From IMG/VR virus record IMGVR_UViG_2925919700_000003, positions 1 to 13,319 of that record: 13,319 bases of DNA. One strand, given 5' to 3'. The position numbers were made by a program, and so were the translations under genes. Each line of letters begins with the position of its first letter. Position 1 is the stretch's first letter. Below are positions 1 through 13,319 of the stretch, in pieces. The DNA comes from a virus. Its lineage: Duplodnaviria > Heunggongvirae > Uroviricota > Caudoviricetes. The notes beneath the pieces are model-generated. The model had not been told where the DNA came from. It worked only from the letters and a program-made list of their open reading frames with translations, and did no database searches.

Positions 1-1053
1 TTACGGGGTAATGCCAACCGCTGCCGCCACTTTGTCGCCACTTGGCAGCGTTGCCAGAGGATTGAAACGGAGCGCCGTTTCCAGATGATCCGGTGCCAGA
101 TGTGCGTAACGCATAGTCATTTTTATATCGTGGTGTCCGAGAATTTTTTGTAAGGCCAGAATGTTTCCACCCGACATCATGAAGTGCGCCGCAAACGTAT
201 GGCGCAGAACGTGTGTGAGTTGACCGCGAGGGAGCACGATAGACGTTTTTTCCATCACGGATAAAAATTGAAAATAGCAGTCTGTGAAGAAATTGAACCC
301 ATCAAGCGCCATGATCTCTTCGTAAAGCTCTTTACTGATAGGGATGCTTCTGTTTTTCTTCCCCTTCGTTCTTACAAAGGTAATTCGGTATTTGGTCACC
401 TGTGAACGAGTAAGATTTACGGCTTCTCGCCAGCGTGCGCCTGTGCTTAAGCATATCTTAACTACCAGTGCCAGAATTGGGTCCTGACGTTTGCAATCAG
501 CCAGTAATTCAACAATCTGCTCATGGGTAAGCCATGCCATCTCTTTTTCTGCGATGGTGAATTTTCGCATGTTCTCCAGTGGGTTCGGATACGACCATTC
601 GCCCAGGCGGGATAGTTCGCTAAAAACACTACTTAGATAGCTTTGCTCCAGGTTAATGGTGACCGGGCTTGCTCCTTTCTTCCATTTCTCGCTGAAGTAG
701 ATCTCACCTGTCAGGCGTTTATCTCGATAGTGGGCAAACATTTTAGAGGTGAGATCAGTTGCAAGGGGATTGCCCAGAGCGTCAACCATCAGCAGCAATT
801 TGTCATAGACATGCTGCCCAGCAGTCAGTGATTTACCATGTAGTTTGAACCATAGCTCAACCACGTCTTTCAGTGTTCGACGATCCACTGATTCACCTAG
901 CCAGGGCTTTGCTTCGGTTTCTTCCATCGTGTGACGCTCAAAAGCCAGTGCTTCGCCTTTGGTGGCGAATTGTTTACGCACACGACGCCCACTACGTCCG
1001 GCGGGGTAACATTCGCAAAGCCATTTTCCTGTGGTGAGTTTTCGTACAGCCAT
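1..1053 (-). CDS. int: Tyrosine recombinase / phage integrase, P2-186 family
   Basis: 350 aa from ATG at 1051-1053 (minus strand), preceded by GGAGGG; the longer 376-aa ORF start is unlikely. N-terminus MAVRKLTTGKW...RKQF resembles the P2 Int N-terminus; C-terminal region has R..HxxR...Y signature (LRHTFAAHF, MTMRYAHL). Stop is the first triplet of the window. Confidence 0.9.
   Translation of the reverse strand: MAVRKLTTGKWLCECYPAGRSGRRVRKQFATKGEALAFERHTMEETEAKPWLGESVDRRTLKDVVELWFKLHGKSLTAGQHVYDKLLLMVDALGNPLATDLTSKMFAHYRDKRLTGEIYFSEKWKKGASPVTINLEQSYLSSVFSELSRLGEWSYPNPLENMRKFTIAEKEMAWLTHEQIVELLADCKRQDPILALVVKICLSTGARWREAVNLTRSQVTKYRITFVRTKGKKNRSIPISKELYEEIMALDGFNFFTDCYFQFLSVMEKTSIVLPRGQLTHVLRHTFAAHFMMSGGNILALQKILGHHDIKMTMRYAHLAPDHLETALRFNPLATLPSGDKVAAAVGITP
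19..40. repeat. Left copy of 22-bp direct repeat, putative attL core, lying inside the 3' end of int
   Basis: cgctgccgccaCtttgtcgcca at 19-40 recurs as cgctgccgccaTtttgtcgcca at 10465-10486 (21/22 identical). The two copies bracket the phage-like block: int stop at 1-3, ogr stop at 10462-10464. Confidence 0.6.
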
Positions 1054-1241
1054 AAAAAATGCCCTCCAATAGAGAGCATTTTTACTGTATGTATAACCAG
1101 TGTCAATGTATGAAATCCTGCGACCATACATCTCACTGAAGCCATAATGAAGTAGGCTATTCTTTTTGCTATGTGATCATGTAACTTTTGCGGTTAACCT
1201 GTGGCTCATTTTTATTTTAGGCGCAGATATAAAAGCAAAAG

Positions 1242-1433
1242 TTATCGTGAGTTTTTAGTACAGATTTTTTTGGATTTACTAATAGTTCCATCATTGCAAA
1301 CGAATTTGCCATCAGAGGTACAGTGAGAAACACCTCCCTTTTTCCCTGAGCAGGGATAATTTCTAGCATAGGTAGCTAGTGGGTTTAATAACAAAGAACA
1401 TGACAAAACCACAAAAAATACCTTACCAAGCAT
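1242..1433 (-). CDS. Small secreted cysteine-rich peptide (63 aa precursor), function unknown
   Basis: Strong SD (GGGAGGA) 5-6 nt upstream of ATG at 1431-1433. N-terminus [23 protein letters not shown] looks like a Sec signal peptide (possible AxA-type cleavage after TYA; an alternative VLSC lipobox is possible). Predicted mature ~40 aa part is basic with 4 Cys. Same strand as cI and int, between them; AT-rich. Confidence 0.55.
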
Positions 1434-1448
1434 AATTTCCTCCCGGTA

Positions 1449-2024
1449 CTATTTAACATACTTGACTGTTAAGCTTATAATTTTACCAATTATTTCAATG
1501 TCTTCTATCTTACATTCGAAGGCTCTGTTTCCACCCTCGACGAAGATTCTTCCACCGGGTAAACGAGTAATGTCACGGATCGTTATTTCGCCATCAATAC
1601 TTATTACCCATTTACCATCACGTATATCATCAAATTCCTTATCACAAATAAATTCAGAATTATTATCTGTGATTACAAAAAGATTCTTGAATGCCGACGG
1701 TAGAAATTCTCTATCGAAAATATAAAAACCGTCTTCACACAAGGCCCCATCAGATAATACATATTTAGCAACTTCCATAGTATTTGTATTACCTGAAGTT
1801 TGCTTTGAACCATGCCCGGTTGTGAGCCAATTAAGCGAGGTTCCTGTTTCAAGGGCGCACTGGATTACCCATTCTGCTGGGAATGAGTCACGCATGTAGC
1901 GTGTGGCGAGTGTACTTTTAGAGATTCCTAAATGATCGCACAACGCCTGTCGAGTCTTGAATCCATAAGCTTCTACCATGCGCTCTATGGCGCCTCGTCC
2001 GCCTTTCTCCAAATTCATGGTCAC
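1449..2024 (-). CDS. cI: Phage 186 CI-like immunity repressor
   Basis: 191 aa; N-terminal HTH region (EAYGF...LCDHLGISKSTLATRY...CALETGTSLNWLTTGHG) and C-terminal region (W.ISIDGEITIR.ITRLPGG...GG..FEC.IEDIE) match my recollection of 186 CI. GGAG precedes the ATG. Divergent from apl-cII. Confidence 0.85.
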   Translation of the reverse strand: MTMNLEKGGRGAIERMVEAYGFKTRQALCDHLGISKSTLATRYMRDSFPAEWVIQCALETGTSLNWLTTGHGSKQTSGNTNTMEVAKYVLSDGALCEDGFYIFDREFLPSAFKNLFVITDNNSEFICDKEFDDIRDGKWVISIDGEITIRDITRLPGGRIFVEGGNRAFECKIEDIEIIGKIISLTVKYVK

Positions 2025-2042
2025 TCCAAGTGAACTTTTATC

Positions 2043-2071
2043 TTGACGATTTCACTGTGCGATCGTATGTT
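2043..2071 (+). promoter_or_regulatory. Candidate sigma70 lytic promoter (pR-like) for apl-cII
   Basis: TTGACG (2043-2048), 17-nt spacer, TATGTT (2066-2071), about 70 nt upstream of the apl ATG. Short inverted repeats (GTGAA...TTCAC) flank the -35 and could be operator half-sites. Position fits a 186-type switch region. Confidence 0.4.
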
Positions 2072-2143
2072 TATGGTGTTCACAAAATACAAACGATCCG
2101 TATTCGTCCTGATTAATCATCATTAAACGAGGAATGTTGCATC

Positions 2144-2365
2144 ATGAGACCTAACATTTCAATCACTCTTACCACGCCTCATGTGACTATTGAACGCTAT
2201 AGCGAGCTGACAGGGCTATCCATCGATACCATCAATGATATGTTGGCTGATGGACGCCTTATCCGTCACCGTCTGCGCAAAGATAAAAAACGCGAAAAAG
2301 TGATGATCAACATAGCAGCAATGACCGTTGATGCGCTTTCAGAATGCAATCTAAACCTTAATTAG
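2144..2365 (+). CDS. apl: Apl/Cox-like excisionase and transcriptional regulator (small HTH protein)
   Basis: 73 aa, first gene of the rightward operon divergent from cI, with probable HTH ([19 protein letters not shown]); GAGGA upstream. Assignment is mainly positional. Confidence 0.7.
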
Positions 2366-2397
2366 TTCGATTCTGAAATACATCAGAGGCATTGACC

Positions 2398-2907
2398 ATG
2401 TTTGATTACCAAGTTTCCAAACATCCACATTTTGATGAAGCCTGTCGTGCATTTGCACTGCGCCACAATCTGGTGCAACTGGCAGAACGTGCAGGCATGA
2501 ATGTGCAGATTCTGCGGAACAAGCTGAACCCAGCTCAGCCTCATTTATTAACCGCACCAGAAATCTGGCTGCTTACCGATCTGACTGAAGATTCAACGCT
2601 GGTAGATGGTTTTCTGGCACAGATTCATTGTCTGCCATGTGTACCGATTAATGAGGTGGCAAAAGAGAAACTGCCACATTACGTCATGAGTGCAACCGCA
2701 GAGATCGGGCGTGTTGCTGCAGGTGCGGTGTCTGGCGATGTAAAAACCTGTGCCGGTCGTCGTGATGCTATCAGCAGCATTAACTCTGTAACACGACTGA
2801 TGGCGCTGGCGGCTGTTTCATTGCAGGCCCGTTTACAGGCTAATCCTGCGATGGCGAGTGCAGTTGATACCGTGACTGGCCTCGGTGCTTCATTTGGTTT
2901 GCTGTGA
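2398..2907 (+). CDS. cII: Phage 186 CII-like lysogeny establishment activator
   Basis: 169 aa from ATG at 2398 (ORF-track start 2392 is TTG). N-terminus [24 protein letters not shown]...[11 protein letters not shown] matches my recollection of 186 CII; follows apl as in 186. Confidence 0.8.
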
Positions 2908-2914
2908 GGTGCTT

Positions 2915-3115
2915 ATGCTGACGAAAGAACCATCATTTGCATCGCTGCTGGTTAAACAAAGCCCGGCAATGCATTACGGTCACGGCTGGATCATGGGGGA
3001 GGATGGTAAACGCTGGCATCCGTGCCGTTCACAAGATGAATTGCTGGCAGAACTATCTACGAAAAAACGGGGGAACAAATGGCTATTGAAGGCACTGCAG
3101 CAACTGTTCCATTAA
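2915..3115 (+). CDS. Small early-operon protein (66 aa), at the position of 186 fil
   Basis: ATG at 2915 with GAGGTG just upstream, starting 8 nt after the cII stop. No motif recognised. Overlaps the next ORF by 37 nt. Confidence 0.4.
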   Translation: MLTKEPSFASLLVKQSPAMHYGHGWIMGEDGKRWHPCRSQDELLAELSTKKRGNKWLLKALQQLFH

Positions 3116-3420
3116 GCCCCGGTGAACGCCTGAATGGACTTAATCACATTGCGGAGTTAAGGGCGAAAGTTTTTGGCCTGAATATTGAGTCAGAGCTTGA
3201 GCGGTTTATTAAAGATATGCGTGATCCATGGGATATCAATAATGAACAAAATAAAAGGGCACTGGCTGCCATATTCTTTATGGCAAAAATTCCAGCTGAA
3301 CGTCATAGCATCAGCATTAATGAGCTGACCACTGACGAAAAGCGGGAGTTGATTAAAGCAATGAATCATTTTCGTGCAGTGGTGAGCTTATTTCCCAGAC
3401 GGCTAACCATGCCGAATTAA
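3079..3420 (+). CDS. Hypothetical phage early protein (113 aa)
   Basis: ATG at 3079 preceded by a GGGGGA purine run; long ORF in the early operon; no recognised motif. Confidence 0.5.
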   Translation: MAIEGTAATVPLSPGERLNGLNHIAELRAKVFGLNIESELERFIKDMRDPWDINNEQNKRALAAIFFMAKIPAERHSISINELTTDEKRELIKAMNHFRAVVSLFPRRLTMPN

Positions 3421-3487
3421 CCAACTAATGAAATTAATGGCGTAAACCCGCCGGGCATCCCTTTATCTAAATTCAGGAGAATTGATT

Positions 3488-3721
3488 ATGCGTAATATTG
3501 AAACCCTCACGACTAAAACCGGACCGGATGACGCAGGGCTTAATATTTTACTGACAGAGGCTCGTCTGGAAGAACGCCGGGCAAGGGCTGAAGCAATGGC
3601 TGCTCGCCTTGATAGCCTGGCGTGTTATATCTCATCCCGCCAGCTAAACCACGTGGAAGCGGCAGAACTGCTGCGCGTGACTGCTGAAGCAATCCAGAAC
3701 GAAGCGCAGGAGATCCACTAA
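3488..3721 (+). CDS. Hypothetical phage early protein (77 aa)
   Basis: AGGAGA 7 nt upstream of ATG at 3488; its stop TAA overlaps the next gene's ATG (TAATG at 3719-3723), suggesting translational coupling. Confidence 0.55.
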   Translation: MRNIETLTTKTGPDDAGLNILLTEARLEERRARAEAMAARLDSLACYISSRQLNHVEAAELLRVTAEAIQNEAQEIH

Positions 3722-3948
3722 TGGCTGATGCAATGGATCTCGTACAGCAGCGCGTTGAAGAAGAACGCCAGCGCCATATCCGTGCAGCCCGTGCCAAATC
3801 ACCGGGCGTGTCACGCGTACTTTGCATTGAATGTGAAGCGCCAATTCCGCCAGCACGACGCCGCGCCATTCCGGGAGTGCAGCTTTGCATTACCTGTCAG
3901 GAAATCGCAGAACTGAAAGGCAAACATTACAACGGAGGTGCTGTATGA
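3721..3948 (+). CDS. TraR/DksA-family C4 zinc-finger protein
   Basis: 75 aa with CIECEAPIPPARRRAIPGVQLCITCQ (CxxC-x17-CxxC), typical of DksA/TraR-type zinc fingers found in P2-like early regions. Stop overlaps the dam start (ATGA at 3945-3948). Confidence 0.75.
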   Translation: MADAMDLVQQRVEEERQRHIRAARAKSPGVSRVLCIECEAPIPPARRRAIPGVQLCITCQEIAELKGKHYNGGAV

Positions 3949-4724
3949 GCACCATCCTGAAATGGGCGGGAAATAAAACCGCCATTATGCCAGAACTGAA
4001 AAAATACCTTCCTGCTGGCCCGCGACTGGTTGAACCTTTCGCGGGTTCCTGTGCTGTGATGATGGAAACGGATTATCCCAGCTATCTGGTTGCGGATATT
4101 AATCCTGATTTAATCAACCTCTATAAAAAGGTTGCCGCTGATTGTGAATCGTTTATATCTCGCGCCAGAGTTTTATTTGAGATCGCAAACAGGGAGGTGG
4201 CTTATTACAACATAAGGCAGGAGTTTAACTGCTCAACTGAAATTACTGATTTCATGAAAGCGGTATATTTCCTGTATCTCAATCGTCACGGTTACCGTGG
4301 TTTATGTCGCTATAACAAGAGCGGGCATTTCAACATTCCCTACGGTAATTATAAAAATCCGTATTTCCCTGAAAAAGAACTTCGCACATTTGCAGAAAAA
4401 GCCCAGCGAGCAACGTTTATCTGCGCCAGCTTTGATGAAACGCTGACGATGTTGAAGGCGGGAGATGTGGTGTATTGCGATCCGCCATATGACGGTACGT
4501 TTTCCGGTTATCACACTGATGGTTTCACTGAAGATGACCAGTATCACCTGGCATCCGTTCTTGAACATCGGTCATCAGAAGGACATCCGGTCATTGTTTC
4601 TAACAGTGACACATCCCTGATCCGTTCGCTGTATCGCAATTTTACTCACCACTATATCAAGGTAAAACGCAGCATCGGTGTGGCAGCTGGCGAGGGTACT
4701 GGAGCTGAAGGTGTACGCGGATGA
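3945..4724 (+). CDS. dam: DNA adenine (N6) methyltransferase, Dam/D12 class; C-terminus probably replaced at a deletion junction
   Basis: [11 protein letters not shown] start, PFAGS AdoMet-binding motif and DPPY catalytic motif ([10 protein letters not shown]). GGAGG 7 nt upstream. After ...[10 protein letters not shown] the last ~16 aa ([15 protein letters not shown]) do not look like a Dam C-terminus, and a tail-fibre reading frame begins at about 4678. Confidence 0.8.
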
Positions 4725-5748
4725 TCAGATGGCAAAACATCTTGCCGCACCGGACCCGCATTCACAGTATGCACAGAAAGAAAGTCCTACGTTTACCGGG
4801 ACACCCAAAGCGCCAACGCCAGCGGCGGGGAATAACACCACGCAGGTTGCGACCACAGCGTTTGTTCAGGCTGCACTGACGGCTATTATTAATGATGCGC
4901 CAGCCACGCTGGACACGCTGAAAGAAATAGCCGTAGCCATTAACAATGATCCGAAATTCAGTACCACCATTAACAATGCGCTGGCACTGAAAGCTCCGCT
5001 GTCGAGTCCGGCACTCACCGGAACGCCAACAGCCCCCACGGCGGCGCAGTCGGTCAATAATACACAGATTGCCACTACGGCTTTTGTGAAATCGGCGATT
5101 GCAGGAATGGTGGGTTCTGCACCTGCGGCACTGGATACACTGAACGAACTGGCGGCGGCACTGGGGAATGACCCGAACTTTGCCACGACAATGCTTAATG
5201 CACTGGCAGGTAAACAACCGCTGGACAATACGCTGACTAATTTGAGTGGAAAGGATGTAGCTGGTCTTCTCGCATACCTTGGTCTGGGGGAAACGATAAA
5301 TAAAGCCTCCGGAGCTATGCAGAAATCAGCTAATGGTTCTGATATTTCTGATATATCAGCCTTCCGAAATGCGCTCCGGTTAGGGGCCGCTGCAACACGA
5401 GATGTTGGAGGGGATAATGCCTCGAAGTTACTGGATTTAGACAGTTTCAGGTCAATGATGTCAGGTAATGGCTACATCTACATTCCATGCATTGCGACGA
5501 CAGGAAACCCGGTGAAACTTATGTTGCAGTGGGGAACGGTGGCAACACAAAAGGGAGCTGATGCTGGATATGCCTTACCATTTGCTTTTCCCTATGCAGG
5601 CTTGTTTGCGACCGGAAACCGTGGAACATCTGGCTACAATGCCGCGATGAATGTGCGTATTGCCAGCAGAACGCATATCAGTATTCAGAACTGGTCGCCA
5701 TCCGGAGAGGGCACCGAAGATTGTTGTTTTATCGCGCTGGGGTATTAA
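4678..5748 (+). pseudogene. Side tail fibre protein (P2 gpH / lambda Stf-like), N-terminally truncated fragment
   Basis: Open frame with no convincing start/RBS, overlapping the dam 3' end. Contains fibre repeats ([31 protein letters not shown]...NTTQ[VI]ATTAFV and TLNELAAALGNDPNFATTM.NALAGKQP). The tail-attachment N-terminal domain is absent. Confidence 0.75.
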
Positions 5749-5750
5749 GA

Positions 5751-6164
5751 ATGAATAAATTTTATAAAGGCTCTTTCTATCCGGAAGCACTAAAAGAGGT
5801 ATATATCAGCGCTGGCTCATGGCCTGAAAACGGCGTTGATGTTGATGATGAAACAATGGCAATTTACACGGGTGTCGTACCGCAGGGTAAAATGCTAGGT
5901 TCCGATAAAAATGGCAACCCTGCTTGGGTGGATATTCCGCCTCTTTCAACGGAGCAATTAGTTGCCATTATGGAGCAGAAGAAAGGGAAACTTCGTTCGA
6001 TAGCCGATGCTGAAATTAGCTGGCGACAGGATGCCGTTGATGAAGGGATAGCGACGAAAGAGGAAACTGCCGCTTTAACTGAATGGAAGAAATACCGTGT
6101 GCTGTTGATGCGTGTTGATACATCACTAGCCCCCAATATTGATTGGCCCGAAGTGCCTGTTTGA
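5751..6164 (+). CDS. Tail fibre assembly protein (Tfa / gpG-like)
   Basis: 137 aa from ATG at 5751, immediately after the fibre stop. C-terminal region (W..YR.LLMRVDTSLAPNIDWPEVP) is Tfa-like. Confidence 0.75.
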   Translation: MNKFYKGSFYPEALKEVYISAGSWPENGVDVDDETMAIYTGVVPQGKMLGSDKNGNPAWVDIPPLSTEQLVAIMEQKKGKLRSIADAEISWRQDAVDEGIATKEETAALTEWKKYRVLLMRVDTSLAPNIDWPEVPV

Positions 6165-6207: not shown

Positions 6208-7347
6208 TTATGCTGTCTTGAACTGTAAAAGCACTTTACTAATTCTTCCCGACAGTAATACAGCTGGTTTATCGAAAAGACGATAGAAACCCCAGGACAC
6301 TGGTAAGCTTATGGCTACGCAAATTATTATTGATATGAGGCTTGCTGCTAATTCATCAATGCGTAAGGACAAGTAGTTAAATGATGGTATTGCTACCGCG
6401 TAAATTAAAACCATTTGTAATAAATATAATGAGAAAGATATCTTGCCTAAAAATATTGCTGGTTTTGTAGATAGTATATTGTTAACCCCATTGCTCCTCA
6501 ATGCAAATAAAACAATAAAAATACCAGAGAATAAAAACAGGGTGTACTCAGTTAAGTAATTATTAATATCTGAGAAAATGCTTGAATAGGCATATGATTG
6601 TACTTTATATCCAGCAAAGTATAATCCAAGAATTAGGATTGCGACAGATGATTTTTTTGATAGTTTAATATTTGTCTTGTATATTACGGAGCCAGACATA
6701 AAACAAGCCAATCCATAGTATAGTGCGTCGCCATCATTGTAATAGCCTAGTGATAGGAATATAAGAAATACAATCGCTGGAAAAAGTGCGGAGTTTGTTT
6801 TCTTGGATATAAATAGTAAAGCCAGAATATATGATCCGATGAGTTCAATTTTCATGGTCCATAATACCCAGTTATAGGTCTTAACACCATCCCCACCAAA
6901 AGCACCTATTAATCCTGTGAATATGGCACCATGTAAGCTGTAATCAAAGGTTCCTAGATTTGAGGCCCATTCGGAAATGCCAGTTCTATTTATATCTATG
7001 TGTGAGTATACAGCCCATCCAATCAAACAAGAGAAAAATACTGGCACCATTAATCTTATATATCTTTTTAAAAGGAATGCAAAGAAAAGAATTGAATCAA
7101 ATCGCTTAGAGAAACTTGAAGATAAAACAAAACCACTTAATACAAAGAATACGTAGACTCCAGCAGAGCCAGAGTAAAAAAAAGAGAAAGGAGAGTTCAT
7201 GATATAACTCTCAAAAGAATACCTCATGGACTCTGCTGCATGCATATATGGGTAGAAAGTATATGCAAGATGTGAGAAAAACACAGCAAGACAGGCGATG
7301 CCTCTGAGACCGTCCGCATTACTATTGTGTTCTTGAGCAACACTCAT
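6208..7347 (-). CDS. Acyltransferase family 3 integral membrane protein (O-antigen/LPS acetylase-like); cargo gene
   Basis: 380 aa from ATG at 7345-7347 (ORF-track start at 7395 is TTG). Polytopic and very hydrophobic; N-terminal GLRGIACLAVFFSHL is typical of acyltransferase-3 (OafA/Oac-like) enzymes. Clearly more AT-rich than the flanking phage and host DNA. Opposite strand to the surrounding late genes. Confidence 0.75.
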   Translation of the reverse strand: MSVAQEHNSNADGLRGIACLAVFFSHLAYTFYPYMHAAESMRYSFESYIMNSPFSFFYSGSAGVYVFFVLSGFVLSSSFSKRFDSILFFAFLLKRYIRLMVPVFFSCLIGWAVYSHIDINRTGISEWASNLGTFDYSLHGAIFTGLIGAFGGDGVKTYNWVLWTMKIELIGSYILALLFISKKTNSALFPAIVFLIFLSLGYYNDGDALYYGLACFMSGSVIYKTNIKLSKKSSVAILILGLYFAGYKVQSYAYSSIFSDINNYLTEYTLFLFSGIFIVLFALRSNGVNNILSTKPAIFLGKISFSLYLLQMVLIYAVAIPSFNYLSLRIDELAASLISIIICVAISLPVSWGFYRLFDKPAVLLSGRISKVLLQFKTA

Positions 7348-7418: not shown

Positions 7419-7454
7419 CATTCTAGCCTGAGGTTACATTCTAGCCTGAGGTTA
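7419..7454. repeat. Perfect 18-bp tandem direct repeat (cattctagcctgaggtta x2)
   Basis: Two identical adjacent 18-bp units at 7419-7436 and 7437-7454, in the region between the acyltransferase start and the late promoter. Confidence 0.9.
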
Positions 7455-7669: not shown

Positions 7670-7732
7670 ATGGCTCAGGATTACCACCACGGGGTGCGCG
7701 TTGTTGAAGTCAACGAGGGCAACGATGAGTGA
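7670..7732 (+). pseudogene. Remnant of tail sheath gene (gpFI-like), first ~17 codons only
   Basis: ATG at 7670 encodes MAQDYHHGVRVVEVNEG..., matching my recollection of the P2 sheath N-terminus (MSDYHHGVQVLEINEG); the frame stops after 20 codons at TGA 7730-7732, overlapping the tape-measure ATG. Confidence 0.55.
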
Positions 7733-8723
7733 TAACAACCTGCGTCTGCAGGTCATTCTTAATGCGGTTGACAAGCTCACCCGCCCATTTCGATCTGCGC
7801 AGGCCAGTTCAAGAGAACTGGCTGCTGCTGTCAAAAAATCCCGCGATGCAATAAAGCAGCTTGATCAGGCCGGGAGCAGTCTGGACAGCTTCCGAAAGCT
7901 GCAGGCAGAAAATCAGAAATTAGGCGACAGGCTGAACTATGCCCGCCAGCGTGCAAATTTGCTCAGTCAGGAACTGGGAGCGATGGGGCCGCCTTCGCAA
8001 CGTCAGGTTGTTGCTCTGGGCCGTCAACGGCTGGCTGTTCAGCGCCTGGAAGAACGCCAGAAAAAGCTGCAGCAGCAGACGGCGCTTGTGCGTGCTGAAC
8101 TGTACCGGGCAGGAATTTCTGCGAAAGACGATGCGGGAGCAACTGCCCGTTTAGCCCGTGAAACATCACGTTATAACCAGGAACTTTCGAAACAGGAGGC
8201 GCGGCTGAAGCGACTGGGGGAAGCTCAGCGCAGGATGAATGCAGCGCGTGCCAGTTATGCCCGTTCGCTGGAGGTGCGTGATCGTATTGCAGGTGCCGGA
8301 GCCACCACCACGGCTGCAGGGCTGGCAATGGGCGCACCAGTGATGGCGGCAGTAAAAAGCTATACCAGCATGGAAGATGCCATGAAAGGTGTGGCAAAGC
8401 AGGTCAATGGTCTGCGTGACGATAATGGCAACCGCACTGCACGTTTTTATGAAATGCAGGATGCCATCAAGGCTGCCAGCGAACAGTTGCCGATGGAAAA
8501 CGGTGCGGTGGATTTCGCTGCACTGGTTGAAGGTGGTGCGCGCATGAACGTCGCAAACCCTGACGACAGTTGGGAAGATCAGAAACGTGACCTGCTGGCC
8601 TTCGCCAGTACGGCAGCAAAGGCGGCAACAGCCTTTGAGCTGCCAGCGGATGAACTGTCAGAAAGTCTGGGGAAAACCGACGTCCGTCCACGCAGTTTCT
8701 GGGACCGGAAAACGACATGCTGA
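7725..8723 (+). pseudogene. Tail tape measure protein (gpT-like), N-terminal ~330 aa, truncated
   Basis: ATG at 7725 (MSDNNLRLQVILNAVDKLTRPF...), GAGGG upstream; coiled-coil-like Q/R/A-rich N-terminal region. Frame ends at 8723, far too short for a P2-size tape measure, and a gpU-like frame opens at 8654. Confidence 0.7.
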
Positions 8724-9058
8724 CGCTTTCCGGTGTTCTTATGCCGGAAATAACAGGCGGCAGGCTGTCGTTGCTGGCACTGGAGCAGATGGCAGAACAG
8801 GGGAAAGCATGGCCCCTGATTGAAGGCAGCGGCACGATTTACGGCATGTATGTGATTGAGGGACTGAATCAGACTAAAACGGAGTTTTTCCGCGACGGTA
8901 TGCCGCGCCGGATTGAGTTCACCCTGTCGCTCAAACGAGTGGATGAATCCCTGTCCGATATGTTCGGTGATCTCAGTGCGCAACTGAATAATCTGCAGGA
9001 CACGGCAACGTCTGCCTTAAGCGATATCAGTAAAACGGTGGGAGGGCTGCTGTCGTGA
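8654..9058 (+). pseudogene. Tail protein gpU-like, N-terminally truncated fragment
   Basis: Frame open from 8654 (first ATG at 8717); ...FLGPENDMLTLSGVLMPEITGGRLSLLALEQMAEQGKAWPLIEGSGTIYGMYVIEG... resembles the P2 gpU central/C-terminal region. Its stop overlaps the gpD start (GTGA at 9055-9058). Confidence 0.6.
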
Positions 9059-10155
9059 ATTTCAGCTCTGAACTGCTTAACAAAGGCAACAAAACTCCCG
9101 CATTCAGCATCAGTATTGAGGGCAGGGATATCACCACTGTGCTGGATAACCGCCTGATGAGTTTGACGCTGACGGATAACCGGGGCTTTGAAGCGGACCA
9201 GCTTGATCTGGAGCTGGACGACGCTGACGGAAAAATCGTGCTGCCGCGCCGTGGTGCGGTCATTACGCTGGCGCTGGGCTGGAAGGGGCAGCCGCTTTTC
9301 CCTAAAGGGGCATTCACAGTGGACGAGATTGAACACACTGGCGCACCGGACCGCCTGACTATCCGGGCGCGAAGTGCTGATTTTCGGGAAACGCTGAATA
9401 CCCGCCGTGAAAAATCGTGGCATAAGACCACCGTCGGGGAAGTGGTGAAGGAAATAGCCGCGCGGCACAAGCTGAAGATGGCACTGGGTAAAGACCTGTC
9501 AGATAAACCCGTGGAGCATATAGACCAGACTAATGAGAGTGACGGCAGTTTTCTGATGCGGCTGGCGCGACAGTACGGTGCCATCGCGTCGGTGAAAAAT
9601 GGCAATCTGTTATTCATCCGGCAGGGGCAGGGCAAAAGCGCCACTGGTAAACCTCTGCCAGTGATCACTATCACACGCAAGGACGGCGACAGTCACCGAT
9701 TTACCCTGGCAGATCGCGGAGCCTACACGGGCGTAATTGCCAGCTGGTTGCATACCCGCGAACCTGCGAAGAAAGAAAGCACCACGGTGAAGCGTAAGCG
9801 CAGAACTAAGAAGCAGAAGAAAGAGCCAGAAGCGAAGCAGGGCGATTACCTGGTGGGTACGGATGAAAACGTGCTGGTACTTAATCGCACTTATGCCAAC
9901 CGGAGCAACGCCGAACGAGCGGCGAAAATGCAGTGGGAACGCCTGCAACGCGGCGTTGCGTCATTTTCGCTACAACTGGCAGAAGGGCGGGCAGATCTCT
10001 ACACGGAAATGCCAGTGAAAGTCAGTGGCTTTAAACAGCCGATAGATGATGCGGAATGGACCATTACGACTCTGACGCATACCGTCAGTCCGGATAACGG
10101 TTTTACGACCAGTCTGGAGCTTGAAGTGAGGATTGATGATTTCGAAATGGAATGA
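9055..10155 (+). CDS. D: Tail protein gpD-like (late tail gene D)
   Basis: 366 aa from GTG at 9055 with GGGAGGG about 8 nt upstream; sits between U and ogr as in P2; similar in size to P2 gpD as I remember it. Confidence 0.75.
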   Translation: MNFSSELLNKGNKTPAFSISIEGRDITTVLDNRLMSLTLTDNRGFEADQLDLELDDADGKIVLPRRGAVITLALGWKGQPLFPKGAFTVDEIEHTGAPDRLTIRARSADFRETLNTRREKSWHKTTVGEVVKEIAARHKLKMALGKDLSDKPVEHIDQTNESDGSFLMRLARQYGAIASVKNGNLLFIRQGQGKSATGKPLPVITITRKDGDSHRFTLADRGAYTGVIASWLHTREPAKKESTTVKRKRRTKKQKKEPEAKQGDYLVGTDENVLVLNRTYANRSNAERAAKMQWERLQRGVASFSLQLAEGRADLYTEMPVKVSGFKQPIDDAEWTITTLTHTVSPDNGFTTSLELEVRIDDFEME

Positions 10156-10245
10156 TTCTTCGCAATAGAGAACTTTTAAGTTTGCAAAATGGAATAATGC
10201 GATATCATTATTGTGAATTTAGCAAAAATGGGGAGAGCTCGAAAA

Positions 10246-10464
10246 ATGATGATTTGCCCACTGTGTGGAAGTACCGCCCATACTCGCAGCAGTTTTCAGG
10301 TATCTTCATTGACCAAAGAGCGTTACAACCAGTGCCAGAACATTAACTGCAGCCATACTTTTGTTACCCATGAAACTTTTGTTCGTTCGATTGCTACGCC
10401 AAAAGAGTCAAATCCGGTTCAGCCGCATCCAATGAAATCAGGACAGGTGGCGCTCTCTCTTTGA
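10246..10464 (+). CDS. ogr: Ogr/Delta-family zinc-finger late-gene transcriptional activator
   Basis: 72 aa from ATG at 10246 with GGGGAGAG 8 nt upstream. MMICPLCGSTAHTRSS...KERYNQCQNINCSHTF has the Cx2C-x22-Cx4C arrangement and the KERYxQCQN motif characteristic of P2 Ogr / 186 B. Confidence 0.9.
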   Translation: MMICPLCGSTAHTRSSFQVSSLTKERYNQCQNINCSHTFVTHETFVRSIATPKESNPVQPHPMKSGQVALSL

Positions 10465-10486
10465 CGCTGCCGCCATTTTGTCGCCA
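10465..10486. repeat. Right copy of 22-bp direct repeat, putative attR core
   Basis: cgctgccgccattttgtcgcca immediately follows the ogr stop codon; 21/22 identical to 19-40. Confidence 0.6.
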
Positions 10487-10543
10487 TCGTTAAAAAACAG
10501 TGCTTCTAACATCATGATTTTAAACAGCATAAATTTCAGGCAA

Positions 10544-10587
10544 CAAAAAACCCATCAACCTTGAACCGAAATGGCGGGGTTGATGGG
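10544..10587 (-). terminator. Rho-independent terminator downstream of ybjL
   Basis: 10-bp perfect stem cccatcaacc / ggttgatggg (10551-10560 and 10578-10587) with 17-nt loop; on the minus strand it is followed by TTTTTTG; about 110 nt past the ybjL stop. Confidence 0.55.
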
Positions 10588-10699
10588 CTCCACAAAATGG
10601 GGACATCAAAGAAAAGCAGTGGCATTAATTAAGACTGATGCCCTGCGGAAAAGTTCTGCGGTTGTGCAAAAAAATTTCATTTTCAGGGCAACTTCAGTT

Positions 10700-12385
10700 T
10701 TATCCTAATCCTGGCCATACCATGACGATGATTGTCCCTGCCAGCGTCAGCAGGACGTTGGCGATTGCGTAGGTGCCCGCATAGCCCAGCGCAGGGATGT
10801 TACTGCGAGCTGTATCACTGATGATCTCCATTGCCGGCGCGCAGGTGCGTGCGCCCATCATTGCGCCGAACAACAGTGCGCGGTTCATTCGCAATACATA
10901 AGCACCGAACAAGAAACAGATAACCACGGGCACAAGACTGACAATTAATCCGGCAATCAACATCTGACCGCCAATCGCGCCCAGGCCGTTATTAATACCG
11001 CTACCGGCGCTCAGACCAACGCCTGCCATAAACACCATCAAGCCGAACTCTTTCACCATGCTTAATGCACCTTGCGGAATGTAACCGAAGGTCGGGTGGT
11101 TAGCACGCATAAAGCCCAGCATAATTCCGGCGAATAACAACCCGGCAGCGTTCCCCATGCCGAAACTGAATGTGCTGAACTGGAAGGTGATCATCCCGAT
11201 CATCAGCCCAATAACAAAGAAGGCGCAAAATGCCAGCAGGTCAGTGACCTGGCTGTGAATCGAGATAAAGCCGATGCGATCGGCGATGGTTTTTACGCGA
11301 CGGGCATCACCGCTGACTTGTAAAACGTCACCTTTGTTAAGCACGACGTTGTCATCTATCGGCATCTCAATCTGGCTACGAATGACGCGGTTAAGGAAGC
11401 AACCGTGATCGGTCAACTTCAGTTGTGCGAGACGTTTACCTACAGCGTTATGGTTTTTAACGACCACTTCTTCAGTGACGATACGCATGTCGAGAAGGTC
11501 ACGATCGAAAACTTCTTTACCGTTACGGAAGCTGGGATCGAGTCGGGCATGGGCGTCGGGATAGCCTACCAACGCTATTTCATCGCCCATTTGTAGCACG
11601 GCATCACCGTCTGGATTTGCCAGAATCCCGTTACGTCGAATACGTTCAATGTAGCAGCCGGTTTGTCGATAAATACCCAGTTCACGCAGATTTTTGCCGT
11701 CGGTCCAGGCCACCAGCTCCGGGCCGACGCGATAGGCGCGGATCACCGGTAAATAAACCTTACGGTTGGCATCAGTGTCCAGGCCACGTTCGCGGGCGAT
11801 TTGCTGGGCGCTGGTCTGTAAGTCCTGATGCTGCAATTTCGGCAAGTAACGCGCACCAACAATCAAACTCACCAGACCGATTAAATAGGTTAAGGCATAC
11901 CCGAGGCTCAGATTATCCAGTGCCAGTGAGAGCTGCCTGCTTTCCATGCCGGAATGACGCAGTGTATCGCCAGCACCGACCAGAACCGGTGTCGACGTCA
12001 TAGAGCCTGCTAACATACCGGCCGTCAGGCCAATATCCCAGCCAAACAGCTTACCTAACCCTAAGGCGATCACCAGCGCACTGCCAACCATCACCAGTGC
12101 TAACATTAGGTAATTTTTCCCATCGCGAAAAAAAATGGAAAAAAAGTTCGGTCCGGCTTCGACCCCGACGCAGAAAATAAACAGCATAAAGCCAAGATTA
12201 AGCGCATCGGTGTTAATGCTGAAATGTTGTTGGCCTAATAACAGCGATACGACTAAAACGCCAATGGAATTACCCAGTTGGATCGAACCAAGTCGTAACT
12301 TTCCGAGACATAGCCCAAGCGCGAGGACCACAAATAATAACAGAATGTAATTCCCATTTAACAATTCGGCGACGTTTATATTCAC
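10700..12385 (-). CDS. ybjL: Putative transport protein YbjL (AAE-family transporter with central TrkA-C/RCK-type domains)
   Basis: 561-aa polytopic membrane protein; sequence ([24 protein letters not shown]...) recognised as E. coli YbjL. GTG start in the ORF track, no clear SD. Confidence 0.9.
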
Positions 12386-12654
12386 GGAGGCTAACTTCTT
12401 GTTTACTAGTAAGCTGTTGAAAGAAATGGTAATTTACGATAATGTTTTTTACCAGAATTCAGGGCGCAGATTCATTCAGCGCACCTAAACGATAGTAAAG
12501 TAACAATATATTTTACTAGTGTAATCACATTAGGTATCAACGGCTATATGAATTGCGTTGGCCTATATTAGCATGGAATGCGAAGCGGCTTTATCTTACT
12601 GAACGCCACACTGGCGAAAAATGTGTTCGATAGACGCAGTGTCAGGAGGAACGA

Positions 12655-13032
12655 GTGAAACATAAACAACGTTGGGCGGGGGCAATCTGCTGTTTTGTCC
12701 TCTTCATTGTGGTGTGCCTTTTTCTGGCGACGCACATGAAAGGCGCTTTTCGGGCTGCCGGGCATCCTGAAATCGGCTTGCTATTTTTCATTCTTCCTGG
12801 AGCAGTCGCCAGCTTCTTTTCACAGCGTAGAGAAGTCCTGAAACCTCTGTTTGGCGCAATGCTGGCGGCACCCTGTTCGATGCTCATTATGCGGCTGTTT
12901 TTTTCACCGACGCGCTCATTCTGGCAAGAGCTGGCATGGTTACTAAGCGCGGTGTTCTGGTGTGCGCTGGGGGCACTGTGTTTCTTATTTATCAGTAGTT
13001 TGTTTAAACCACAGCACAGAAAAAATCAGTAA
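12655..13032 (+). CDS. ybjM: Inner membrane protein YbjM
   Basis: 125 aa, hydrophobic, GTG start with AGGAGGA upstream; position between ybjL and grxA matches the E. coli K-12 gene order. Confidence 0.8.
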   Translation: MKHKQRWAGAICCFVLFIVVCLFLATHMKGAFRAAGHPEIGLLFFILPGAVASFFSQRREVLKPLFGAMLAAPCSMLIMRLFFSPTRSFWQELAWLLSAVFWCALGALCFLFISSLFKPQHRKNQ

Positions 13033-13052
13033 AGCCCTCAACGCGAGGGCTT
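13021..13052 (-). terminator. Rho-independent terminator of grxA (hairpin shared with convergent ybjM)
   Basis: 8-bp stem aagccctc / gagggctt with 5-nt loop (13032-13052); on the minus strand followed by a T-run (complement of aaaaa at 13021-13025); lies just past the grxA stop. Confidence 0.6.
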
Positions 13053-13061
13053 GTCAGACGA

Positions 13062-13319
13062 TCAGGCGTCCAGATTTTCTTTCACCCATGCAGCAAAATC
13101 GGTATAGCCGCCGATATGTTGCTGATCGACAAAAATCTGCGGCACGGTTTCTACGGGTTTACCTGCCTTTTGTTGTAGATCTTCTTTAGTGATCCCTTCC
13201 GCACGAATATCTACATACTGATACTGAAAATCATCGCGTTCATTGCTCAATTTCTCAGCCAGATCTTTTGCACGCACACAGTAAGGGCAACCCGAACGAC
13301 CAAAAATAACGGTTTGCAT
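13062..13319 (-). CDS. grxA: Glutaredoxin 1
   Basis: 85 aa, MQTVIFGRSGCPYCVRAKDLAEKL... with the CPYC active site; recognised as E. coli Grx1. The start codon is the last triplet of the window. Confidence 0.95.
   Translation of the reverse strand: MQTVIFGRSGCPYCVRAKDLAEKLSNERDDFQYQYVDIRAEGITKEDLQQKAGKPVETVPQIFVDQQHIGGYTDFAAWVKENLDA

Follow-up and report, generated by a model that had tools for sequence, protein, structure and literature searches.

What joined the methyltransferase gene dam of a prophage to the middle of its tail-fibre gene, and what is left of the two genes? The question is raised by a stretch of viral DNA of 13,319 nucleotides (the window), analysed here at its full length. 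An earlier note on this DNA, made from the sequence alone, had placed a deletion junction at 4660–4740. The junction is real, and its crossover lies at 4695–4698. It is very probably an ordinary deletion scar in a decayed P2-like prophage, produced by homology-poor recombination. This kind of feature is already known and such scars are common; only the pattern of breakpoints across sister remnants merits a specialist's second look.

A defective P2-like prophage next to ybjL

The window, 13.3 kb from the integrase stop codon to the start of grxA, holds a P2/186-like prophage remnant adjoining ybjL of E. coli. The prophage is inserted in the chromosome between rcdA and ybjL. Gene labels were assigned with Pfam profiles and with the annotation of near-identical DNA from E. 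coli MB06234. The minus strand at the left end carries a complete prophage integrase (1–1053; Pfam Int_N and Phage_integrase), which maps base for base onto the annotated MB06234 integrase, and a complete CI-type repressor (1449–2018; Phage_CI_repr and Phage_CI_C, with the MB06234 annotation). On the plus strand follows the early operon 5′ of dam (2144–3948), in which the MB06234 annotation and Pfam label cox-like, cII-like, fil, DUF5347, DUF2732 and TraR/DksA zinc-finger genes. This operon leads into the chimeric dam gene (3945–4724) and the tail-fibre (gpH-like) remnant (4699–5748), both on the plus strand. Downstream lie an intact tfa, a gpG-like tail-fibre assembly gene (5751–6164, plus strand; Caudo_TAP), and an intact Acyltransferase_3 cargo gene on the minus strand (6208–7347; PF01757), located between tfa and the sheath gene. 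The encoded 379-aa acyltransferase is annotated in MB06234, AREA_497 and PSS-15, and a search of the cargo gene against PADLOC gave no match.

Comparison with intact relatives identifies two more scars in the tail genes. At the second (7670–7725, plus strand), the first 52 nt of the sheath gene are joined, near 7721, just 5′ of the tape-measure ATG at 7725, with a loss of ~2.1 kb (sheath, tube and E/E′). The same scar is present in three further loci (L162, L167 and L168), while among complete RefSeq E. coli genomes it is found in MB06234 only. The tape-measure fragment that follows (7725–8679, plus strand), delimited by its homology with gene T of KP12 and PSS-15, comprises approximately the first 318 codons. 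It ends in the third scar (8670–8679), which near 8675 joins the tape measure to the middle of gpU through an AAA overlap within an imperfect 10-nt match, at a cost of ~2.2 kb. The deletion that MB06234 carries in its tape-measure/U/D region overlaps that of the window without either being nested in the other; the two arose independently.

The right part of the prophage holds a C-terminal gpU fragment (8717–9058, plus strand; Phage_P2_GpU, profile positions 45–120 only), a complete gpD gene (9055–10155, plus strand; Phage_GPD) and the intact late-gene activator ogr (10246–10464, plus strand; Ogr_Delta, with the MB06234 annotation). Next comes a 27-nt attR core (10530–10556), obtained from direct-repeat family D2 at locus L159 and converted to window coordinates. 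It is identical to attL, which lies ~75–100 nt outside the start of the window, at 24 of 27 positions. The host genes ybjL, ybjM and grxA make up the right end.

The remaining genes are colinear with those of phage KP12, 813R9 and the PSS-15 prophage, following the P2/186-like (Peduoviridae) order int, C, cox, early operon, dam, A ... H, G, FI ... T, U, D, ogr, with att repeats. The modules of a functional phage are incomplete: H, T and U are truncated, and A, cos, Q, P, O, N, M, L, the lysis genes, R, S, V, W, J, I, FI, FII and E are absent from the window. The element is a defective remnant for which particle production is impossible. Such a dead prophage may still give immunity via CI, and it has the acyltransferase cargo aboard.

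The dam–fibre joint and the two broken genes

As an intact reference, the prophage of E. coli PSS-15 is the best suited: it is inserted at the chromosomal site of the remnant and has the same rare acyltransferase gene as cargo. In megablast comparisons with phage records, dam homology (up to 99.6% identity) stops at window position 4698 and fibre homology (up to 97.5%) begins at 4695; in the Klebsiella phage KP12, the two corresponding points are 18,172 bp apart. Three-way alignments with KP12 and, later, with the intact PSS-15 prophage put the crossover inside GGTA at 4695–4698; MB06234 was also used in delimiting the junction. At this position, the dam parent reads GCTGGCGAGGGTA followed by AATCAGC, the fibre parent reads GATGATAAGGTA followed by CTGGAGCTG, and the window reads GCTGGCGAGGGTA followed by CTGGAGCTG. 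These alignments of dam, fibre and window define a 4-bp overlap. In codon terms, dam codon 251/252 is joined to tail-fibre codon 155/156. The earlier note was right that dam is fused to the fibre gene, although it put the break directly after the Dam residues KRSI (~4672–4678); native Dam sequence continues for 7 codons beyond KRSI (IGVAAGEG), which places the break at 4695–4698. The fibre-derived frame that it saw opening at ~4678 is likewise displaced, as 4678–4694 is dam DNA read in another frame.

Relative to the PSS-15 prophage, 17,506 bp are missing (reference 1894–19399). This segment contains the last 34 dam codons, gene A, small genes and cargo, cos, the portal gene and both terminase genes; then the scaffold, capsid, head-completion, holin, lysozyme and spanin genes; and finally R, S, V, W, J, I and fibre codons 1–155. 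All genes that the earlier note had listed as lost are found between the two points in the intact prophage. Direct or inverted repeats of at least 8 nt do not occur within 4600–4800, the joint contains neither an IS element nor a recombinase gene, and the window has no transposase ORF. With both flanks colinear with an intact parent, an overlap of a few bp and no IS element, long repeat or recombinase site, the joint has the features of a microhomology-mediated (illegitimate) deletion.

Several specific mechanisms were considered for the joint and rejected. Nicking by gpA at ori-like sites does not fit, as neither dam 1893 nor fibre 19396 has a sequence like that of the annotated P2 nick site (GCGCCTCG/GAGTCC, nicked at the slash) or of its homologue at ~4016–4045 of the PSS-15 prophage; the P2 ori 11-mer was not found in the A gene of the PSS-15-type prophage. 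Switching by a Gin/Cin/Pin-type invertase was discarded as well: the window has no serine invertase, the acyltransferase gene occupies the position of the KP12 invertase, and the boundary of KP12 homology at window position 5292 is 600 bp away from the joint. An IS element or repeat at the joint was dismissed, none being found there. Finally, a partial Chi match and the motifs CTGGAG/CTGAAG, which we take to be type IIS restriction sites, were judged by eye to have an unfit geometry.

The joint is real and clonally inherited. The 259-aa chimeric Dam protein is found, residue for residue, in at least 24 public assemblies (24 contigs read, from an index of assemblies in which 32 blocks contain it), among them GCA_019235255.1, GCA_033267405.1 and GCA_018493095.1. 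Three contigs compared are colinear with the window at 99.99–100%, and a fourth contig, at locus L165, has the same architecture. All known occurrences come from draft and read-archive assemblies, reached by exact-protein look-up. A search of 5,426 complete RefSeq E. coli genomes did not find the joint, and exact scans returned nothing from species-representative genomes (with a fibre-side 26-mer contained in the window) or from metagenome contigs (with a junction 26-mer). That an assembler falsely joined two contigs has a negligible probability, because the chimeric protein recurs in at least 24 assemblies; the identical protein and colinear DNA come from independent NCBI and Logan assemblies, and the 4 bp of common sequence at the joint are too short to mislead an assembler. 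The idea that dam and the fibre gene are both short by native design can draw on the 345-aa fibre ORF that a gene caller predicts from GTG 4711. It is nevertheless next to impossible, given that intact relatives all encode a Dam of 285 aa upstream of gene A and a fibre of 505 aa downstream of gene I, and that the Dam tail found here comes from out-of-frame fibre DNA.

The deletion scar leaves a dam frame (3945–4724) whose product starts with MSTILKW and is native over residues 1–251. As the earlier note had suspected, the C-terminus is not that of a Dam protein: the last eight residues, TGAEGVRG, are the fibre gene read out of frame up to a stop at 4722–4724. The chimera has 259 aa compared with 285 aa in intact homologues, the intact gene measuring 858 bp. 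The Pfam D12 methyltransferase profile PF02086 matches residues 7–244 over its full length (profile positions 1–253 of 253; E = 2.9e-75), and both the AdoMet-binding motif EPFAGS (30–35) and the DPPY motif (179–182) are present. The protein thereby resembles phage orphan Dam enzymes of the D12 class, alpha group (E. coli Dam, PDB 2G1P; T4 Dam), which share the DPPY and N-terminal FxGxG-type motifs; residues 4–263 of intact Dam align with E. coli Dam at E = 1e-72. It differs from E. coli Dam in that the part aligned to 259–270 and the remaining C-terminus are replaced by eight unrelated residues.

The 34 lost residues (252–285) begin with KSAxEIIAV, a segment that aligns with E. coli Dam ~259–267 and in which, among 20 homologues, K252, A254, E256, I258 and A259 show full or at least 90% conservation. 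Thus, the core motifs are all kept, as the earlier note had stated, but a near-invariant C-terminal segment has been removed, so that the chimera lacks part of the complete, conserved fold. The PADLOC orphan-methyltransferase profile is matched only up to position 257 of 275. In an AlphaFold (AF2) model of an intact homologue, residues 253–260 form a strand paired with 234–241, in a poor model with a mean pLDDT of 48. The last strand of a methyltransferase fold usually lies inside the central sheet. The chimeric Dam is probably impaired, to judge from the loss of the conserved segment and from this low-confidence model strand.

The fibre gene keeps residues 156–505, or 350 of 505, with codon 156 falling within the overlap; residues 157–505 are encoded by 4699–5748, as delimited by comparison with the fibre of the intact prophage at locus L170, from which the remnant differs by zero mismatches. 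The loss corresponds almost exactly to the N-terminal tail-collar, baseplate-attachment domain PF12571, which occupies residues 1–150 of the full-length 505-aa fibre and is absent from the remnant. The distal receptor-binding part (Gp53-like_C) is retained and followed by the Tfa chaperone gene (Caudo_TAP), which is intact, in agreement with the earlier note. Tfa is found unchanged in 238 index blocks of public assemblies. The suggestion in the earlier note that the distal fibre and Tfa could act as a recombination reservoir for receptor-binding modules is speculative. The earlier description of the fibre frame as one without a start codon does not hold: the frame is open from 4663 to 5748 and contains GTG 4678, GTG 4711 and ATG 4730 as candidate in-frame starts. 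GTG 4711 has a GGAG 6 nt upstream and is the start picked by the gene caller in locus L160.

The late promoter of the fibre gene is lost, and a search of the plus strand near the joint found no sigma-70-like promoter. The fibre remnant is promoterless, downstream of dam in the early operon. By analogy with P2 biology, the intact CI repressor should keep this operon, including the remnant, silent. For annotators, the dam gene is best recorded here as a truncated chimera and the fibre ORF as a pseudogene fragment.

Sister remnants and the route to the joint

Looking up the identical Tfa protein yielded seven deletion architectures of one prophage lineage, together with nearly identical intact copies (L170). 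The window shows no mismatch to MB06234, L162 and L167 over ~9 kb of shared DNA, and it differs from the other three sister remnants by 0–3 mismatches in each segment compared. Every architecture lacks the lysis genes (reference 13961–15600) and the capsid genes. An independent dam–fibre joint is found 25 bp away in locus L174 (dam 1734 to fibre 19421), and the database holds chimeric Dam proteins of further remnants, some with Dam fused to gpD, gpA and gpR-region DNA.

Defective P2-like prophages at rcdA–ybjL (MB06234, APEC O78, O19:H7 730V1 and AREA_497) share the site and gene order of the window. They carry similar internal fusions (terminase to fibre, portal to tape measure, A to J, portal to V), with truncated genes that RefSeq annotates as pseudogenes. 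They differ in that none of the remnants in the 5,426 complete genomes has the dam–fibre joint of the window.

E. coli K-12 carries a small P2 remnant made up of ogrK and a gpD fragment. Bobay, Touchon and Rocha reportedly described, in PNAS in 2014, the domestication and decay of prophages by deletion from comparative genomics. The present case resembles known prophage decay in that lysis and structural genes are gone while repressor, integrase and cargo are kept; unlike in known cases, several states of one prophage can be aligned here with 0–3 point mutations in the shared DNA. Illegitimate recombination at short homologies in E. coli comprises RecA-independent deletion between short direct repeats and alternative end joining. 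The overlaps of 0–6 bp, lacking a recombinase site or IS element, are of this type, whereas their unusual TA-richness and the recurrence of endpoints depart from the textbook form.

The whole middle of the prophage was very probably lost by illegitimate, homology-poor recombination. The class of mechanism would be microhomology-mediated joining, either by template switching during replication or by end joining after a break. Rapid selection may have driven the process, favouring cells rid of the killing functions of a prophage that was already tail-less, with further loss afterwards; this is suggested by the absence of lysis and capsid genes from all architectures, an argument from gene content alone.

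Whether the joint arose in one event or in several bears on the earlier proposal of one large deletion. The deletion itself stands; the word "one" is put in doubt by the joints of MB06234 and L167. The closest relative is MB06234, whose type is represented by assembly GCF_053103255.1; it matches the window without a mismatch in ~8.6 kb of flanks (1–4698 and 9399–13319). Between these flanks, a single substitution and one 18-bp repeat copy separate the two. MB06234 retains an intact dam, A, sieB, the portal gene and half of the terminase, which ends in GAACGGATA and is joined to the identical fibre nucleotide, CTGGAGCTG. In L167 (GCA_014105395.1), the identical terminase nucleotide is joined to gene V instead. 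In PSS-15 coordinates, the resulting chain reads terminase 9619 to V 16818 in L167, terminase 9619 to fibre 19398 in MB06234, and dam 1893 to fibre 19396 in the window.

Two routes could produce this outcome. In one, GGTA would join dam to an intact fibre gene in a single event. In the other, the terminase would be joined to the fibre nucleotide, a state kept in MB06234, and a 6,656-bp deletion from dam would then end exactly at the old terminase–fibre joint. From the sequences, with the fibre endpoint common to MB06234 and the window and the terminase endpoint common to MB06234 and L167, a stepwise route is no less likely than one event.

The competing account, a reading to which we assign slightly less than an even chance, posits exactly one 17.5-kb deletion, preceded at most by the sheath–tube loss, and treats the fibre endpoint of MB06234 as an independent hit on a hot spot. 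In its favour, the overlap is longer with the intact fibre gene (GGTA, 4 bp) than with the MB06234 joint as partner (only TA), and selection would pick one hit that deletes the lysis genes. Hot spots do exist: one gpD endpoint (28433–5) occurs with three partners despite conflicting other scars, and a dam endpoint (1767–9) in four joints from different lineages. Against it stand the terminase end common to L167 and MB06234, the fibre end common to MB06234 and the window, and the lack of any point substitution between the window and either remnant in the shared DNA compared. Moreover, the other fetched loci containing the right-side 26-mer are intact upstream in the fibre gene in 151 of 152 cases, MB06234 being the sole exception; we therefore rejected the idea that the fibre site is a hot spot in general. 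The odds of one step as opposed to two are about even, with our slight lean towards the stepwise route.

Taken alone, the scar matters little, being one step in the decay of such viruses. The sister remnants, on the other hand, form a natural series for the pace and route of prophage inactivation.

Re-used endpoints and TA-rich overlaps

Endpoints recur across the sister remnants (coordinates of the PSS-15 reference). The terminase endpoint 9619 and the fibre endpoint 19396/8 are each used twice. The gpD endpoint 28433–5 is used three times, and the remnants concerned carry other scars at odds with simple descent; the dam endpoint 1767–9 is used four times, in different lineages. A tape-measure endpoint (26227/31) is the right end of one deletion and the left end of another. 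Three endpoints lie downstream of the P2 ori nick-site homologue, at a distance of at most 200 bp.

The overlaps also share sequence features. In a first set of 19 overlaps, TA lies inside 12, where 0.76 would be expected, and A is the last base on the plus strand in 16 (4.75 expected); the opposite strand is unbiased. G is frequent at −4, and a single overlap exceeds 4 bp. In a held-out set of eight joints from other chimeric Dam proteins, TA lay in the overlap in 1/8 and the overlap ended in A in 1/8. TA was found at most 2 nt from the overlap in 6/8 held-out joints (1.3 expected), a statistic that was set after the data had been seen. The joints are partly related by descent, so these counts are not fully independent, and the TA and endpoint pattern may partly reflect shared descent.

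Together, endpoint re-use and the TA excess are unlike random microhomology joining, and something more specific may act. The deletions could be directed by a specific break or switch activity at preferred sites resembling G-N-T-A on the plus strand, for example during abortive induction or in-situ replication of the trapped prophage. Such an activity would bear on the mechanism alone and agrees with the reading as a scar. We consider it unlikely. The excess of TA and of a terminal plus-strand A in the 19 overlaps speaks for it, as do the re-used endpoints, the three ends near the nick-site homologue and the proximity of TA in six held-out joints. However, the strict signature fails in the held-out joints (1/8), the looser TA statistic is post hoc and taken from joints that share descent, and the P2 nick site and its homologue are unlike the motif; nor did a candidate enzyme emerge. 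A search of the literature on the P2 ori and on TA-biased deletion joints found nothing usable.

Extended to the whole family, this reading would make the decay non-random, with recurrent endpoints, many different deletions against almost no point change in shared DNA, and strand-biased, TA-rich overlaps of rarely more than 4 bp, produced by breaks or template switches when a trapped prophage replicates or is induced, after which cells that have lost the lysis genes survive. We regard this proposal, too, as doubtful. If true, the dam–fibre joint of the window would be one product of this process. Should the endpoint re-use and the TA bias hold, they would offer a way into the mechanism by which illegitimate deletions form in E. 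coli.

Deletion endpoints in dam, gene A and the structural genes

Public assemblies hold many further chimeric Dam genes (at 6589-6595 in L174 and 6565-6567 in L172, as well as in the remnants L173 and L175-L178), including an independent dam|fibre fusion that lies 25 bp away from the joint of the window. Other fusion partners of Dam are gpD, gpA and the gpR region. In the coordinates of L158, the intact reference prophage of E. coli PSS-15, dam 1767-9 served as an endpoint four times in other lineages; deletions that gut these prophages often have their left end in dam.

Re-use of endpoints extends to other genes. Comparing L003 (the sister remnant of E. coli MB06234), L006 and the sister remnants L162, L163, L167 and L168 in PSS-15 coordinates, we found the same endpoints joined to different partners: terminase 9619 (twice), fibre 19396/8 (twice), gpD 28433-5 (three times) and tape measure 26227/31 (twice). 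The portal gene was used twice at ~8190, with the endpoints a few bp apart. Within gene A, the interval L158 4016-4250 holds three endpoints, at 4101 (strain 730V1), 4190 (L168) and 4230 (L178), all downstream of the sequence homologous to the P2 ori nick site and no more than 200 bp from it; ~0.3 such endpoints would be expected by chance.

The short sequences common to both parents at the joints were examined in the same six loci and in L004, L005 and L172-L178. TA is enriched in these overlaps (12/19 vs 0.76 expected), and on the plus strand 16 of the 19 end in A, against an expectation of 4.75. The strict TA or final-A signature did not replicate in the eight held-out joints, taken from other chimeric Dam loci; a looser TA statistic, defined post hoc, was present in six of these eight (1.3 expected).

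Further scars and the recency of decay

The window carries two more deletion scars. At the second (7670-7725), only the initial 52 nt of the tail-sheath gene remain, fused just 5′ of the tape-measure ATG, with loss of sheath, tube and E/E′ (~2.1 kb). This scar is common to five different decay architectures, and MB06234 is the only complete RefSeq genome that has it. At the third (8670-8679), the tape-measure gene is fused to the middle of gpU, with ~2.2 kb lost. MB06234 instead has a deletion from tape measure to gpD in this region; since the two overlap without being nested, they are independent in origin.

Across the ~9 kb of DNA shared with MB06234, L162 and L167, the window shows no mismatch. 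Other remnants differ from it by 0-3 mismatches per segment, and the intact prophage L170 by 0-1. Measured against point mutation, decay therefore happened very recently.

Cargo lost and cargo retained

The dam|fibre deletion of the window removed the entire slot between gene A and portal, whose cargo differs in each sister prophage. For the four loci L003 (8458-9879), L006 (13559-16811), L004 (9258-10606) and L158 (5195-7639), the cargo listed is SieB, retron Ec78 with PtuAB, a TIR-domain protein and a STAS-like protein. In P2-like phages, this slot is described as an anti-phage hot spot (PMC9122126).

An intact Acyl_transf_3 gene is retained as cargo on the minus strand (6208-7347), between tfa and the sheath gene, in a slot where Klebsiella phage KP12 has an invertase. 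The gene is rare (4/5,426 complete E. coli genomes) and is intact in every remnant of the lineage except L167, where an IS element is inserted. A PADLOC search gave no match for this acyltransferase, which may be a surface-modifying conversion gene and the selected part of the remnant.

Two small differences lie near this gene. An intergenic C-run at ~7643 is one base shorter in the window than in all other assemblies of the same locus, carriers of the dam|fibre joint included, and may reflect a sequencing error or a private indel. Two tandem copies of the 18-bp unit CATTCTAGCCTGAGGTTA lie 5′ of the acyltransferase gene (7419-7454); 12 other loci likewise have two copies, and MB06234, PSS-15 and L171 have one.
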